Sequence record: OL631482.1
DNA from: Escherichia phage ECML-359
Reading direction: 5' to 3' (one strand)
Length of the DNA: 64,000 nt
Of the stretch, positions 2,992 through 58,693 are shown one piece after another (positions within the stretch are counted from its first letter, which is position 1; every line of letters begins with the position of its first letter). Position numbers and translations under genes: made by a program. The notes below the pieces were generated by a model. That model did not search any database. It worked only from the letters and a program-made list of their open reading frames with translations, and was not told where the DNA came from.

Positions 2992-4819
2992 GTGTCGCAT
3001 TCATCCAATCTTTACGCTGCTGGGAATCTTTACCGAAGAGCATTTCGAACAGTTCTTTCCAGTTGTCGGGCAATTGAACAACTTCGAATACAGGTTCGAG
3101 CAATACGCGTTTGTACTCAGCATCTTCCAGAGAACCAAGTCCCTTTATATATCTGATAGTATGCTTCGGAAGTTTATCCTTAGCTTCTTCATAATCAGGA
3201 AGAGAATAAAACCATTCTTGTTTATCTTTGAGCTGCGCAATAATAACAGGAGTTTTCACAAAGCGAATTCGTCCTTCATGGAACAGCTCTGGCCAGTTAC
3301 TGAAAAACGCCAATAACGATGGATAGATACTACCGACACCATCCACATCCGCATCTGTCATGATAGCAATGTTTCGGTAATTCATATTCTCGGCCGGTTG
3401 TCCAATCGTTAACCCAGTAATTGCACACACATCAAAGGCTTCGGCGTTCTTCATAACATCAACAGCTTTCAGGCCCCATGTGTTTTTAAACTTACCACGT
3501 AACGGATAAGCACCTTGCAATTCACGGTCGCGAACCTTGATAAATGGCCCGGTTGCAGAATCACCTTCGGTCAGGAACAGAGTCGTTTCCAGCTTATCAT
3601 TGCCCCATTCGTTGGCCTTGATATGCTTTTGCACCTTGGCCTTTGAAGCTTTCTTATTCGCCTTGGTCTCTGCTGCTTTCTCTGCAGCCAATTTACGGGC
3701 TAATGCAGCTTCAACAATCGGCATAATCAGCGGTTCATTTTTCAGAATAGCTTGCGCGATTTTCTTGGCATCAATCTTAATGTGATTTCGAATTTCACCA
3801 GCCGGAGAAGTCAATCGCTCCTTAGTCTGGGAATCAAATCGCATGTTGCTCATATCGCGAATGAACATAAGCATGGTGAGGCATTCCTTAACTCGTGCCT
3901 TTGTCACCTCAATGCCTTTATATTTGCGTTTAATGGCTGGCTGAAGATGTTCACAGATATCATCCATAACACATTCAACGTGGTGTCCACCATTCTTTGT
4001 ATGAATGTTGTTGACATAAGTCAACTGGCGGAAACCATCCGGGCTAGTCGTAAAGGCCATCGATACTGTATCAGTTTCCTGGATAACAACTTCGGTTCCG
4101 AATTGCTTGGCGAACTTCTTGAAATTGCCATCAACCTTTTTACCATTAAAGGTAAACTGAATATCTGGATAAACAACCGCAAGAGTCTGCAGACGGTCCA
4201 ATGTAATATCCAGATAAATCCGGGACAGGCTATTTTCTTCAAAGTGACTGAAGTCCGGAACAAAAATAACAGTTGTACCTTTACCCTTAGATTTCTTGGT
4301 AGACCAACCTTTGTTTTCCATACCATTGGAGCAGTTAACGGTGATTTCATTTGCGCCGTCGGCGGTAATCCCGGTGAACAATACAGAGAAAATATTGGTC
4401 AGAGAAGACCCGACGCCATTCATCCCACCAGTTTTACGTTCAGCATCATCACCGAAGTTACCACCTGCTTTTGGAATAGTCCATGCTGCAACCGGGCCAG
4501 GGATTTGTTCACCGTTTTGGTCTGTAACCATTGCTTGTGGAATACCACGGCCATTATCGGAAACCGAAATCTGATTATCTTTAATTTGGACATCAATTTT
4601 ATTGGCAAATTTAAAACTGGTGCGAATTGCTTCATCAACAGAGTTATCGATAATTTCATCAATCAGTTTTACAATACCAGGAACATAGCTTACGGACTTA
4701 TATTCACCAAACAAGAATCGCTCATGCGCTTCATTTGAACTGGAACCAATATACATCCCGGAACGTTTTTTGATATGCTCGACGTCCGAGAGTACTTTAA
4801 TTTCATTATTAATCATCAT
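2987..4819 (-). CDS. 39: DNA topoisomerase II large subunit (gp39 with gp60-equivalent region fused, 610 aa)
   Basis: GyrB-like ATPase/TOPRIM motifs (GMYIGSS, DNGRGIP); single uninterrupted ORF. Confidence 0.9.
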   Translation of the reverse strand: MMINNEIKVLSDVEHIKKRSGMYIGSSSNEAHERFLFGEYKSVSYVPGIVKLIDEIIDNSVDEAIRTSFKFANKIDVQIKDNQISVSDNGRGIPQAMVTDQNGEQIPGPVAAWTIPKAGGNFGDDAERKTGGMNGVGSSLTNIFSVLFTGITADGANEITVNCSNGMENKGWSTKKSKGKGTTVIFVPDFSHFEENSLSRIYLDITLDRLQTLAVVYPDIQFTFNGKKVDGNFKKFAKQFGTEVVIQETDTVSMAFTTSPDGFRQLTYVNNIHTKNGGHHVECVMDDICEHLQPAIKRKYKGIEVTKARVKECLTMLMFIRDMSNMRFDSQTKERLTSPAGEIRNHIKIDAKKIAQAILKNEPLIMPIVEAALARKLAAEKAAETKANKKASKAKVQKHIKANEWGNDKLETTLFLTEGDSATGPFIKVRDRELQGAYPLRGKFKNTWGLKAVDVMKNAEAFDVCAITGLTIGQPAENMNYRNIAIMTDADVDGVGSIYPSLLAFFSNWPELFHEGRIRFVKTPVIIAQLKDKQEWFYSLPDYEEAKDKLPKHTIRYIKGLGSLEDAEYKRVLLEPVFEVVQLPDNWKELFEMLFGKDSQQRKDWMNATL

Positions 4820-4841
4820 CTTTCCTCTTGTGTATGGAGGT

Positions 4842-4867
4842 ATTATAAGTCACATATTTTAAAGCAA
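4842..4867 (-). promoter_or_regulatory. MotA-box middle promoter (tTGCTTTA, 12 nt, TATAAT) upstream of gene 39
   Basis: Minus-strand reading TTTTTGCTTTAaaatatgtgactTATAAT; box overlaps terminator T tract. Confidence 0.5.
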
Positions 4868-4886
4868 AAAGGCCCGAAGGCCTTTT
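4866..4886 (-). terminator. hairpin GGCC-cgaa-GGCC with flanking A/T runs
   Basis: Perfect stem between gene 39 start and upstream gene stop. Confidence 0.55.
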
Positions 4887-5286
4887 ATTTGAATCGAAGC
4901 TGCTCTAACATTTTAATAGCTTGTAGGCGCCCGGCTTCAGTTTTAACCGTAATAATAACATCGCCACCGGTAACAACGATATCCTCTTTTGATTCCTGTT
5001 CGGTTATTTCAGAATCACATTCCTTTGGGGTTTCTTCAAAATATTTAAATTCATCACCAAAAATAAGACCGGTTCCATTACGACTATGGAAAGAAAATCC
5101 AGTTCCATCGATAGTACTAAATTCCGTCACAACATTTGCTTCCATCTTGGTGACTGAAAACTCTTTGGTAGTAATCAAATCAATGATAGAGGTTCCTTGC
5201 TGGTTCAAAATGCAACCGGGCATACCGACATGTTTAAGGAAGCCATCTAAATCTTTAATGCAATAACTCTTTCCAATTTTAAACAT
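4885..5286 (-). CDS. hypothetical protein (about 133 aa from MFKIGKSYC...)
   Basis: ORF-track ORF 4885-5463; start moved to internal ATG with GAGGA site just after the lipoprotein stop. Confidence 0.45.
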   Translation of the reverse strand: MFKIGKSYCIKDLDGFLKHVGMPGCILNQQGTSIIDLITTKEFSVTKMEANVVTEFSTIDGTGFSFHSRNGTGLIFGDEFKYFEETPKECDSEITEQESKEDIVVTGGDVIITVKTEAGRLQAIKMLEQLRFK

Positions 5287-5560: not shown

Positions 5561-5737
5561 TCACTTAGTCAGCAGGTCGTAAAAACCGCCATTAACATGT
5601 TTAGGGGCCGAGACTAACCGAACAGCCAGCCGATGGCAATCAGGACAAACATCATTATCTCTTTCAGAGATTTTCTTGATTTTTTCGTATTCTTTCGCGC
5701 AGTCATTGGATTGACATTTGTAATCATAAAGTGGCAT
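5561..5737 (-). CDS. small zinc-ribbon protein (58 aa, CxxxxC...CxxC)
   Basis: Translation MPLYDYKCQSNDCAKEYE...CPDCHR; AAGGAA ribosome site; fits exactly between flanking genes. Confidence 0.5.
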   Translation of the reverse strand: MPLYDYKCQSNDCAKEYEKIKKISERDNDVCPDCHRLAVRLVSAPKHVNGGFYDLLTK

Positions 5738-5738
5738 G

Positions 5739-6110
5739 TTATTCCTTAAAGTGTGCTTTCAACATCTGGTAAACGGTCCAGGCTTCGGAGTTATTAGAGA
5801 TGGTGATTTTAGTCAAAGGGAATTCGCTTGGCTCAGATGGAGCTGCGTCTTCGCATTCATCTTCAGTATCGTCATCTTTTTCTTCTTCAAAGAAACGGAA
5901 TTCGTCTTCCTTTATGAATAGGCTCACAAATTCACCAGTTGATAATTCCATTTTATACACATCACCATCTTCAATTCTGACTGGTCTAAATCCCTCGCCA
6001 TTGATTATAGCATTGGCTATATTATCATTATCTGTGCATAACAAACGGAATCTGCTTTCAGCAACATTATCTTTAAAATAATACCACTTATCAGTTTCAA
6101 ATTTAGACAT
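5739..6110 (-). CDS. acidic hypothetical protein (about 123 aa from MSKFETDKW...)
   Basis: ORF 5739-6233 trimmed to ATG with AAGGAG site; overlaps upstream stop by 8 nt. Confidence 0.45.
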   Translation of the reverse strand: MSKFETDKWYYFKDNVAESRFRLLCTDNDNIANAIINGEGFRPVRIEDGDVYKMELSTGEFVSLFIKEDEFRFFEEEKDDDTEDECEDAAPSEPSEFPLTKITISNNSEAWTVYQMLKAHFKE

Positions 6111-16833: not shown

Positions 16834-17053
16834 AGTTTCCTCATTTCAATGGCCCCGAAGGACCATTATACTGTAGGTTTATCGTCTTTATTCTTACGCT
16901 TTTTTGATGGGATTTGTTCAGGGCCTTTATTGACAACTGCCCCGGAAGTGGTACCTGTTGCGATATTAGTTGGGTTTCCACCTGCATCACCGGCAACCAT
17001 ATCTTCATTGATAAAATCTTTGAATGTTTTCATAACAACCCCCTTTCCGCTAT

Positions 17054-22261: not shown

Positions 22262-22765
22262 TTAGTTAATACCTTGACGTGCTTTCTCTTTAGCTACACA
22301 TTTATTAATATAGCTCAGACGGTTTTGAGCAGAACGCTGATACATATCGCGATACTCATTAGCTTTTGGAGAACCAGCCTCTGCTGCCTGATAAGCTTCC
22401 GCGCGCATGATGTTTATCTGCATATTGATGTATGACATGCAGACCTGTGAAATCTGGTTAACAGTATCCAGGTCATTTTGGCGCTTGGTTTCTGCTTCCA
22501 GTTTAGCAATGATTTCGTCATGCTTCGCAGCTTGTTCGCGTTTGTACTCAATTTCACGTTGAGCATATTTCGCGCAGTTATTTCCACATTGATTGTTGTC
22601 ACGTTTGTAGATAAGTCCAGTACCACCTTTGAAATCAAAGGAACCATTATGCACCTGACGGTCTGCAGCAATTCTTGCTTTACCAATCTCACTGGCATTA
22701 ACTACATCACCCTGGTAAGCACAACCGGATAGCAGCATAACAGCTGCGATAGCTAACTTTTTCAT
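22262..22765 (-). CDS. putative lipoprotein (about 167 aa from MKKLAIAAVMLLSGC)
   Basis: Lipobox LSGC; GAGGAA site; occupies the T4 beta-gt/42 slot. Confidence 0.5.
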   Translation of the reverse strand: MKKLAIAAVMLLSGCAYQGDVVNASEIGKARIAADRQVHNGSFDFKGGTGLIYKRDNNQCGNNCAKYAQREIEYKREQAAKHDEIIAKLEAETKRQNDLDTVNQISQVCMSYINMQINIMRAEAYQAAEAGSPKANEYRDMYQRSAQNRLSYINKCVAKEKARQGIN

Positions 22766-22775
22766 TTTATTTTCC

Positions 22776-22919
22776 TCAATTAAAACATTCATAACGGGCT
22801 TGGAGTCCCAAAAATACCCAACCCAAAATTAAAGTTGGAATCATATGCGGAGTCATTATTGCCCAATAGATTGACATACTAAAAAATGCAATCAGTACAA
22901 TAATTGTAATTATCTTCAT
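22776..22919 (-). CDS. small membrane protein (47 aa, imm.1-like)
   Basis: ATGA overlap with imm stop; hydrophobic MKIITIIVLIAFFSMSIYWAIM... Confidence 0.3.
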   Translation of the reverse strand: MKIITIIVLIAFFSMSIYWAIMTPHMIPTLILGWVFLGLQARYECFN

Positions 22920-23158
22920 TTGGTTTCCTTGATGATAATTAACTGTGCGTTTGATTTACGTTCAGCAACGAGTGCCCAAATAAACGCAATAAACCACCCA
23001 ACCATTGTCCAACCTAACAGAAGGTTAACAAAGAAGATTCCGCAATTACTTTTGGTTCCACGCAGTAGCGCGATAATCCACGGTAGAAAATAGGTCAGTG
23101 CAGCCAAGAAGAAAGAACCAGCACCAAGAACAACAGTACCCGCAATTAATGTTTCCAT
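22916..23158 (-). CDS. imm: Imm-like superinfection immunity membrane protein (80 aa)
   Basis: Two TM helices; adjacent to gene 43 as in T4. Confidence 0.5.
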   Translation of the reverse strand: METLIAGTVVLGAGSFFLAALTYFLPWIIALLRGTKSNCGIFFVNLLLGWTMVGWFIAFIWALVAERKSNAQLIIIKETK

Positions 23159-56587: not shown

Positions 56588-56864
56588 TAATTAATCGCAC
56601 ATCCTGGTCATAGGTCAGGAGGCTACGAGTTATAATACCCTTACACGGTCCAGAAATAAATTCCAGAGTAAAGTAAGGAACCAACTTCATCAAGCGAATA
56701 CTCGGAGCAGTGCAACGAAATCTGGACCCAATAAAAGGTCCAGACAAAAACACATACTCAAAGAAATTAGCTTTATTAAAGATTTCATAATTCTTTACAA
56801 AATCCTCAGACCGAACCTTTGGAATAAAATAGAGTTGGTCAAAAAGCTCTTCATGGGTCATCAT
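56565..56864 (-). CDS. hypothetical protein (99 aa)
   Basis: Minus ORF. Confidence 0.4.
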   Translation of the reverse strand: MMTHEELFDQLYFIPKVRSEDFVKNYEIFNKANFFEYVFLSGPFIGSRFRCTAPSIRLMKLVPYFTLEFISGPCKGIITRSLLTYDQDVRLISDWKKYV

Positions 56865-57388
56865 TGCATTCCTATCACAAAGAACAGGGGCAGGGGTTTA
56901 GAACCCTGGCACATAAATTTATTCATCATTGTCTGATAAGCTTCATAGAACTTATCCATCGCTGGAAGACGCATTGGCTCTTCAATAATAATCAATAATC
57001 GGGTAACAGACAGCCCACGATACTTGTGAAAATGATCTTCATCTAAAAATGAACGAACAGTATCATATACAACAAAACCAGGTCGTTCAACATTAAGATG
57101 TGGCTGTGCTTTAGAAACCCGCTTTATTATATCACAGATTTCTCGTGAGCGATGCGAAGAACTCGACATAACAATTACATCATTACCCTTAGAAACCCAA
57201 TCCGCAGCGAACTGTGCAATGGCACTTGTTTTACCTGTTTGCCTTCCGCCGTCAAGTCTAAGAGTACCAAACTCTTGCATTCTTGAAGCGGGTTCATACC
57301 AGGTGTATTGGTCTGAATCTAAGCGTTCAATGGCGCGTTCAGCGAAGGCGTGCATTAAGGTTAGATAAATGGGAGTTAAAAATTTCAT
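56861..57388 (-). CDS. small P-loop NTPase-like protein (175 aa)
   Basis: Walker A GGRQTGKTS and Walker B-like LLIIIEE. Confidence 0.45.
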   Translation of the reverse strand: MKFLTPIYLTLMHAFAERAIERLDSDQYTWYEPASRMQEFGTLRLDGGRQTGKTSAIAQFAADWVSKGNDVIVMSSSSHRSREICDIIKRVSKAQPHLNVERPGFVVYDTVRSFLDEDHFHKYRGLSVTRLLIIIEEPMRLPAMDKFYEAYQTMMNKFMCQGSKPLPLFFVIGMQ

Positions 57389-57552
57389 AATTGTCTCTTT
57401 TTAAGTTGTGGGGCCGTTCCTTGGCACATAATTCATCCGTGTATCCGTATGTAAACCCCTTACCGCACTTGGGCTCGACCTTATTACAGGTAGGGAAAGG
57501 TCCATCACTCAGAGGACGCGACGTTCATGAGGAGAGGGCCGGCTTGCCTTTA

Positions 57553-57852
57553 TTAGAAAGAACCAGAACCTTTAATTGTGTTCTGGCGACCTTTATTTTC
57601 TAATTCAGAATGGTCGATTTCGTATGCTTGTGCTACACCAAAGGCCTTTTTAACTTTAGCTAAAGAACCTTTAGATGTAACAATATTAAAAGTATTGCCT
57701 TTAGTAAAATCAACCAAATCCACTTGTACACCCTGTTTACCGAGGCTTGCTACAATAGCATCAACATATTGTTGGTCTAAAGTACCTTGGACTCCAATTT
57801 GGAATGCTTTAGGGGCTTTGGCTTCTGTGATAAATTCTTGATAAGTTTTCAT
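57553..57852 (-). CDS. internal protein (IP) paralog with capsid-targeting N-terminus
   Basis: N-terminus MKTYQEFITEA matches T4 IPII/IPIII capsid targeting sequence. Confidence 0.6.
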   Translation of the reverse strand: MKTYQEFITEAKAPKAFQIGVQGTLDQQYVDAIVASLGKQGVQVDLVDFTKGNTFNIVTSKGSLAKVKKAFGVAQAYEIDHSELENKGRQNTIKGSGSF

Positions 57853-57906
57853 TTATTCTCTCCAAGTTGATGGGATAATTATACACTATCCCATCATAAA
57901 GTAAAC
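57853..57906 (-). promoter_or_regulatory. PeSL-like early promoter cassette (GTTTAC -35, TATAAT -10)
   Basis: TGTTTAC ... GGGATAGTGTATAATTATCCCATCAACTTGGAGAGAATAA. Confidence 0.55.
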
Positions 57907-57908
57907 AG

Positions 57909-58211
57909 TTATGCTTTACCGCCAGAAACAATACCAAAGGTCTCAAAGTCCCATTCAATATCATCAACATCAACTTTCTTACCAGCAACAACAAATGCGA
58001 TTTCACGGCGTTTTGCATAGGTGACAATTTCTTTACCATCACCGCCAAAGAAAGAATACCCATTACGCTTCATGGTGCCAAAGTCTTCAGCATCGCCAGC
58101 AAAGGCGCGAACTTTAAAAGCACCAGTAGGAGCTTTGGCAGATTCAGTAATAAATTCTTGATAAGTTTTCATTTTATATTCCATTGTTTGGTTGATAAAA
58201 TCATTATACAA
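57909..58211 (-). CDS. internal protein (IP) paralog
   Basis: N-terminus MKTYQEFITES; tandem with 57553-57852. Confidence 0.6.
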   Translation of the reverse strand: MYNDFINQTMEYKMKTYQEFITESAKAPTGAFKVRAFAGDAEDFGTMKRNGYSFFGGDGKEIVTYAKRREIAFVVAGKKVDVDDIEWDFETFGIVSGGKA

Positions 58212-58220
58212 CCTTTTTAG

Positions 58221-58637
58221 TTAAGCGTACACAGCTTTCCCATAGTATTTGTACCAGGTAGGCTTTTGAGAAATTTTCTCATTCAGTCTGGCTTGACTGA
58301 TTTCAATTGACCAGATTGATGGTTGATAATCATTCTTCCATTCATCAGGAATATCATTTAAATCTTGTGTAGAAATATCTTTTATGTTAAACCCTCGCTT
58401 TAAACATTCCGCAATAAGTTCTTGATGCCGGTTTTTAAGGAACAAAAGCTTATCATAAAAGAAGGTGACATGACCAGTCCCTAAAAGAAAAGATGATGGG
58501 ATTTTAAAGTCAGACACCTTTTTACCATTTTGCACATGCTTACGAACAGCGCCAAAAACGCGAGGAAGTTCACGATATTCAGCCATAAGATGTTGGTCAG
58601 CGAGTTCAGATACCAGGGTTAAATTAATGCGAGTCAT
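58221..58637 (-). CDS. denV: endonuclease V DenV (138 aa)
   Basis: N-terminus [26 protein letters not shown] matches T4 DenV; same length. Confidence 0.85.
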
Positions 58638-58693
58638 GTTTGTTCTCCGTAGTTGATAGGGTCATTATAACCCTATCATTTGGAGATGTACAC
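58638..58693 (-). promoter_or_regulatory. PeSL-like early promoter cassette
   Basis: GTGTACA ... GATAGGGTTATAATGACCCTATC stem-loop ... AACTACGGAGAACAAA. Confidence 0.6.

Follow-up and report, generated by a model that had tools for sequence, protein, structure and literature searches.

Two small adjacent genes downstream of denV, here called ipA and ipB, raise the question of whether they are diverged copies of one gene or unrelated genes with a common 5' end, and of what their products do. They lie on the minus strand of the window, i.e. the whole 64-kb stretch of Escherichia phage ECML-359 DNA that was analysed. The phage is a Gaprivervirus-like relative of T4: the locus is approximately 95% identical to that of the Gaprivervirus phages VR20, VR7, VR25 and SP18, and the minus-strand gene order is nudE, e, denV, ipA, ipB, a 164-nt spacer and vs.8 (Table 1). 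An initial annotation had described the two open reading frames (ORFs) in 57553-58211 as paralogous, fast-evolving internal proteins that both open with MKTYQEFITE(A/S), and translation of the minus strand confirms this common beginning. The right-hand limit of 58211 holds in so far as the ipA frame is open from an upstream in-frame TTG at that position, but VR20, the closest RefSeq relative, is annotated as starting at the ATG at 58172, which gives a protein of 87 aa.

Table 1. Features of the ipA-ipB locus, with positions in the window
Feature	Position	Strand	Basis
vs.8 homologue, P-loop NTPase-like, downstream neighbour	56861..57388	-	ORF; relatives' annotation
Conserved vs.8 leader, non-coding; fixed downstream limit of the array, separate from the ip genes	57395..57545	-	
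ipB (Ip7), internal head protein precursor, 99 aa	57553..57852	-	
ipB leader codons (MKTYQEFITE), predicted cut after E10 (ITE/A)	57823..57852	-	sequence
Direct repeat copy 1, 32 nt, leader codons plus 2 nt upstream	57823..57854	.	
Perfect 10-nt inverted repeat TGATGGGATA / TATCCCATCA around the ipB -10 hexamer	57868..57896	.	repeat search
T4-early-type promoter-like site upstream of ipB: TTTACT, 16 nt, TATAAT, preceded by G (GTTTAC)	57878..57905	-	promoter scan, 10/12 matches; consensus match only
ipA, internal head protein precursor, 87 aa; unnamed family, homologue of VR20 gp119	57909..58172	-	ORF and translation; relatives' annotation
ipA leader codons (MKTYQEFITE), predicted prohead-protease cut after E10 (ITE/S)	58143..58172	-	sequence; sole [LIV]xE site
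Direct repeat copy 2, 32 nt	58143..58174	.	
Promoter-like site upstream of ipA: GTGTAC, 18 nt, TATAAT, TG just upstream; overlaps the denV stop	58203..58232	-	read from sequence
denV (endonuclease V), constant upstream border of the cassette array	58221..58637	-	ORF; relatives' annotation

MKTYQEFIAE is the opening of both ipII and ipIII in the T4 record, so that nine of the ten leader residues are shared with ipA and ipB; the leader was rightly recognised as a capsid-targeting sequence (CTS) of the T4 kind, but it is not identical to that of T4, as had been implied. Suppressor analysis of T4 IPIII has assigned residues 4 and 7 to targeting and residues 8 and 10 to processing (PMC9026906), and Y4, F7, I8 and E10 are all retained in both proteins. 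The ten-residue T4 leader alone is enough for the packaging of foreign proteins and is removed by gp21, and the T4 head holds approximately 360 copies each of IPI, IPII and IPIII (PMC9026906). A protease cleavage site had been expected after the targeting sequence, and each protein carries a single [LIV]xE motif, I8-T9-E10, which lies at the end of the leader and corresponds to the (L/I)-x-E motif cut by the gp21 prohead protease. The predicted mature forms are a near neutral protein of 77 aa for ipA (pI 6.2) and a basic protein of 89 aa for ipB (pI 9.3), as compared with a pI of 9.6-9.7 for T4 IPII and IPIII. At the DNA level, a 23-nt string of leader-coding sequence, ATGAAAACTTATCAAGAATTTAT, occurs exactly twice in the 64-kb window and in none of 100 shuffles, and a repeat search of the window finds a 32-nt direct repeat over the leaders, identical at 30 of 32 bases.

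The similarity of the two proteins stops soon after the leader. BLASTP of ipA against ipB aligns only residues 1-21 (16 of 21 identical). Past the cleavage site the residues AKAP..AF, to residue 19-21, are also common to both; beyond these no similarity is detectable. When leader and linker are removed, hhalign comparison of the mature families gives a probability of 0.2%, or 0.4% with a broader ipA alignment, and a phmmer search with mature ipA against 1.84 billion representatives returned no member of the Ip7 family. A true paralogous origin would require a tandem duplication, followed by divergence past recognition that left the leader as its sole remnant. The two genes are adjacent and of similar size, a beta strand directly after the AKAP linker and then a helix are predicted in both, and without the leader both still match the PHROG family phrog_2667 (E 1.2e-33 and 5.6e-13), all of which would fit such a history. 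However, phrog_2667 is probably a mixed, heterogeneous cluster joined via leader and linker; we read it in this way because the exhaustive ipA search, which recovered ipA-like proteins only, returned no Ip7-family protein. Along with the profile comparison of the mature families, two further observations count against duplication: the near identity of the leader codons alongside bodies that can not be aligned suits recent homogenisation or recombination of the leader rather than uniform divergence, and the same leader type precedes 13 mutually unrelated bodies among the 40 loci or sources compared. We therefore consider it improbable that the genes are paralogs. By these sequence comparisons, ipA and ipB share a promoter-plus-leader module, near-identical in DNA over the leader and -10 region, and their bodies have no detectable common ancestor. 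Comparison with VR20, described below, identifies the leader as a recombination module and not as the trace of a duplication.

Nor does the description as fast-evolving fit these genes. In comparisons with congeners, 10-15 of the 11-16 nucleotide differences in ipA and ipB fall at third codon positions, with 0-4 amino acid changes, and the 15 differences between ipA and its VR25 homologue are all at third positions and all silent. Given this third-position bias, ipA and ipB are real genes under strong purifying selection within the genus, and Ip7 is in addition conserved across several genera. It follows that the diversity of the locus comes from cassette swapping and not from fast sequence change; what varies is which cassettes are present.

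Sequence comparison places ipB in the Ip7 family over its whole length, as an ordinary allele. It matches phrog_2667, "internal head protein", at E 1.7e-42, and tblastn with its mature part shows that 283 phage records carry Ip7, including T2, RB32 and RB69, as well as phages of Klebsiella, Enterobacter and Citrobacter. The family is spread over Tequatro-, Mosig-, Gapriver-, Jiaoda-, Karam- and Moonvirus-type phages, genera with differing DNA modifications. Over 98-100% of the mature part, identity is 96.6% to VR7 ip7 and 46.7% to Ip7 of T2 and RB32; it is 42% to that of RB69, and mature ipB is 100% identical to a protein of phage vB_EcoM_RZ. The predicted fold of mature Ip7 is ferredoxin-like (beta-alpha-beta-beta-alpha-beta), which is generic and gives no functional pointer; in a structure search of BFVD with the ipB model, Ip7 is the sole significant match (E 6.9e-10).

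The ipA family, which carries no name, is found in 205 phage records (tblastn with the mature part). Identity is 97-100% to the homologues in VR20 (gp119), VR25 and SP18, being 100% for VR25, and 71-75% in Tequatrovirus and Mosigvirus, where homologues are often annotated "internal head protein", as they are in VR20 and phage 212. There are just five 90%-identity clusters of ipA in a collection of 5.8 billion proteins. The phmmer search with mature ipA returned six proteins, five of them small and with CTS-like or truncated leaders; the sixth, a 572-aa repeat protein, is taken as a spurious match. The structure model of ipA has a pLDDT of 47 and is too poor for a structure search. Neither Pfam nor NCBIfam has a family for ipA or ipB, and a search of the PDB, which includes IPI*, with the profiles of both families gave nothing below E 0.1. 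Databases and the literature already contain the two proteins, the leader and the variable locus, with mature proteins of 100% identity in GenBank; since both families are already annotated in related phages, their occurrence here is real but ordinary.

The set of leader-bearing genes at this locus differs between phages. VR20 has four: ip5 between e and denV, and ip10, gp119 (corresponding to ipA) and ip7 (corresponding to ipB) past denV. Phage 212 carries the two cassettes of the window and another between e and denV, while in T4 both cassettes, ipIII and ipII, lie between e and denV, and the region past denV has none. The BLAST alignment of the window with VR20 consists of two blocks that overlap exactly on 58141-58172, i.e. 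on the leader codons. Between the blocks is a stretch of approximately 296 nt that is found only in VR20 and contains the body of ip10, the distance from leader start to leader start being 328 bp. Moreover, the 90 nt upstream of ipA, together with the first 32 bases of its coding region, are identical to the upstream region of VR20 ip10, not to that of gp119. Whereas gp119 is preceded by ip10 and has a short spacer of its own, ipA now stands behind the denV-proximal promoter and leader that belong to ip10 in VR20. The ip10 cassette is missing relative to VR20, and an indel junction that falls within the leader repeat, as here, is the mark of homologous recombination of two leader repeats, by deletion in this lineage or by insertion in VR20.

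The mapped junction is a clean illustration of cassette exchange. The hyperplastic internal-protein loci of T4-type phages, for which PMC12373910 cites Repoila et al. 1994, likewise have short conserved regulatory and leader sequences flanking unrelated ORFs, which serve as patches of homology for shuffling. The window does not differ from them in principle, and is one more example, in which the junction has been mapped. The promoter-stem-loop cassettes of T4-type phages, reportedly described by Arbiol et al. in 2010, are of the same kind. The gap between e and denV in the window (58638-58692) is 55 nt long and contains a promoter-like site. As VR20 (with ip5) and phage 212 (with an "internal virion protein") fill this slot, the window phage has two of four cassette slots occupied.

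The regulatory part of the module can be recognised upstream of both genes. The promoter-like site of ipA was not called by the promoter scan, and its sequence is the same as that preceding VR20 ip10; the -10 region is repeated upstream of ipA and ipB in the repeat search. GTTTAC...TATA sites analogous to that of ipB precede T4 ipIII, ipII and denV, and T4 ipII and ipIII have similar inverted repeats around the upstream -10. The late-promoter consensus TATAAATA does not occur within 54-62 kb of the window, so expression at the time of head assembly must depend on early or middle promoters, or else on readthrough. The head-assembly genes themselves are outside the 64-kb window; VR20 encodes gp20, gp67, gp68, the gp21 protease, gp22 and gp23.

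These early-type promoter-like sites, with no late consensus nearby, would also suit proteins that are made early, stay in the cytoplasm and are never packaged, the conserved 5' end being retained solely for expression and recombination. The gp61.1 homologue, a third ORF whose N-terminus is similar, lies in a replication gene cluster and points the same way. We regard such a role as very improbable, however, in view of the amino acid-level conservation at precisely those residues that serve targeting and cleavage, the capacity of the ten T4 residues to package foreign proteins by themselves (PMC9026906), and the presence in virions of CTS-bearing neighbours of e in a related genus. In that genus, Jiaodavirus, virion mass spectrometry detects two CTS-bearing proteins encoded next to e (PMC13119998). 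These two proteins, gp126 and gp127 of Klebsiella phage ValerieMcCarty03, are not Ip7: one is homologous to IPII, and the other is a different CTS-bearing protein. Literature searches found no virion proteomics or N-terminal sequencing of members of the Ip7 or ipA family, VR7 included. The gp61.1 homologue is a basic ORF of 55 aa just upstream of the primase gene (16866-17033, minus strand), which has the CTS-like sequence MKTFKDFINE, with I-N-E at positions 8-10, and matches phrog_1823 (unknown function).

Assignment of ipA and ipB to the internal-protein class stands: they have a bona fide T4-type leader and protease site, they occupy the known variable ip locus beside denV and e, and relatives annotate both as internal head proteins. 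By analogy with T4 IPIII, it is very probable that they are T4-type internal (ejection) proteins that follow the same packaging route. Like T4 IPI, IPII and IPIII, they are of a small, non-essential type, with a leader of the form MKTYQEFI(A/T)E cut, or predicted to be cut, after Glu10, they belong to the e-denV-vs.8 neighbourhood, and each has a T4-early-type promoter or promoter-like site, with, in the case of ipB as of T4 ipII and ipIII, an inverted repeat around the -10. Packaging, processing by gp21 and injection would be expected to be alike as well. The differences lie in the mature bodies, which have no detectable sequence similarity to those of T4 and form separate families among the 13 bodies, in position, as T4 ipII and ipIII sit between e and denV and the cassettes of the window downstream of denV, and in the near neutral charge of ipA, unlike the basic classical internal proteins.

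We propose that each gene is a cassette in which an early-type promoter and a ribosome site precede a constant leader of 10 codons, a short AKAP linker and a variable body. During prohead assembly the leader would dock the precursor on the gp22/gp21 scaffolding core, and the gp21 protease would then cut after Glu10 (I-T-E/A in ipB and I-T-E/S in ipA), with mature Ip7 and ipA remaining in the head with the DNA. Both would be ejected into the host along with the DNA, and could in this way act ahead of any phage gene expression. Their likely task would be to neutralise host defences that attack the incoming DNA, with a separate target for each protein. Cassettes would be gained and lost when repeated leaders and promoters undergo homologous recombination, which would explain the two, three or four different bodies found at the locus in relatives. 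Judged by the T4 system, packaging, cleavage, injection and an anti-defence function are the most likely course for these proteins.

Regarding the target, the T4 proteins Ip1, Ip2 and Ip3 act on GmrSD type IV restriction enzymes, each inhibiting a different one, without cross-protection (PMC12373910). As known targets are confined to these three internal proteins, each further CTS-bearing body is a candidate injected anti-defence protein. Taken on its own, an anti-defence role for ipA and ipB is about evenly balanced. A target of the GmrSD type seems unlikely. Homology of ipA and ipB to IPI*, Ip2 and Ip3 was not found, as the bodies group separately from those of the IPII and IPIII type and the PDB search gave no match to IPI*. 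Tests of ip4-10 on a panel of GmrSD enzymes gave no reproducible interaction, the apparent one between ip7 and CLS_011 included (PMC12373910 supplement), and the conservation of Ip7 across genera with different DNA chemistries also counts against a GmrSD-specific reading.

The DNA of the host genus bears on the same point. In T4 it is the hydroxymethylcytosine (hmC) and glucosylation pathway that makes GmrSD relevant, whereas the genus of the window phage is without it: gene 42 and beta-gt are absent between uvsX and gene 43 in the window, and VR20 annotates none at either glucosyltransferase position. Two papers report Gaprivervirus to be without hmC synthesis genes and yet to carry dCTPase, DenB and Alc. 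With no hmC and glucosylation genes, the classical GmrSD substrate may be absent from these phages. As a tentative suggestion, either ipA or Ip7 may be injected to inhibit some host defence different from the GmrSD enzymes that T4 Ip1-3 block. This would fit a genus that lacks hydroxymethylcytosine and keeps dCTPase, DenB and Alc, and if true, would provide both a new anti-defence protein and a pointer to the DNA modification of Gaprivervirus. With 283 and 205 records, respectively, Ip7 and the ipA family are widespread enough to merit screening against defences other than GmrSD. The region from uvsX to gene 43 in the window (22262-23158), where T4 has beta-gt and gene 42, contains only an ORF of 176 aa with a lipoprotein-like signal, MKKLAIAAVMLLSGC, and imm.

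For Ip7, a mainly structural or DNA-associated role in the head has also to be weighed, in which it would aid assembly of the core or neutralise the charge of the DNA, as has been proposed for T4 IPIII. Mature ipB is basic, as are T4 IPII and IPIII, and it is under strong purifying selection; conservation over six phage genus types with different DNA modifications would be odd for an arms-race effector, and the GmrSD panel gave no reproducible target (PMC12373910). Head assembly is also slower in T4 IPIII mutants (PMC9026906). On the other hand, T4 can do without its internal proteins on laboratory hosts, and each of the three is a restriction inhibitor (PMC9026906, PMC12373910), and many relatives are without Ip7, which is found in far fewer phage records than the neighbouring vs.8 leader (283 versus 978). 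A chiefly structural Ip7 therefore appears doubtful, and an injected protein of the T4 type remains the preferred interpretation.

The spacer between ipB and vs.8 contains a further conserved element, which has no Rfam family and is a more interesting lead than the ip genes themselves. It comprises approximately 130-150 nt of the spacer and is more conserved than the surrounding genes. A blastn search recovers it from 978 phage records spanning many genera, and in every case it immediately precedes vs.8; in one Jiaodavirus, an additional copy precedes an IPII-like gene. Elsewhere it is located at 2250-2420 of the T4 locus (L039) and at 5097-5258 and 5619-5780 of the ValerieMcCarty03 locus (L005). 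Its core of 35 nt, ACCTGTAATAAGGTCGAGC..G.GCGGTAA.GG, shows little or no variation. The element has indels of 7 and 12 nt, which break the reading frame, and as no frame is conserved it does not appear to be coding. The T4 RefSeq record hides it within a vs.8 ORF that is over-extended at the N-terminus.

Several lines of evidence suggest that this element is structured as RNA. One helix of five bases, always equally far from the core, occurs in six sequence classes, and the complement is kept in 30 of 34 distinct copies. In the RNAalifold consensus, 97.5% of cells pair, a figure that drops to 48.5% or less once the partners are shifted along the alignment; in four pairs both bases have changed, and the observed covariation score was reached by none of 500 shuffles. 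RNAalifold on sequence-based alignments gives a partial structure, in which two supported helices overlap. We consider the vs.8 leader an apparently structured candidate for a new cis-regulatory RNA of vs.8. Four variants of the element had no match in Rfam, and a text search of the literature gave no match to its core sequence. The 54 exact matches to a 16-mer of the core in bacterial genomes are attributed to chance, as none has the flanking conserved bases and approximately 280 are expected. The GC-rich spacer after ipB was also considered as a terminator, and this was rejected given that it has no T run and a single-sequence fold z-score of 0.04. In ValerieMcCarty03, the gene at 4561-5142 bears the annotation "putative IpIII internal head protein" but encodes a homologue of vs.8 rather than an internal protein; its N-terminal extension reaches into the leader element.
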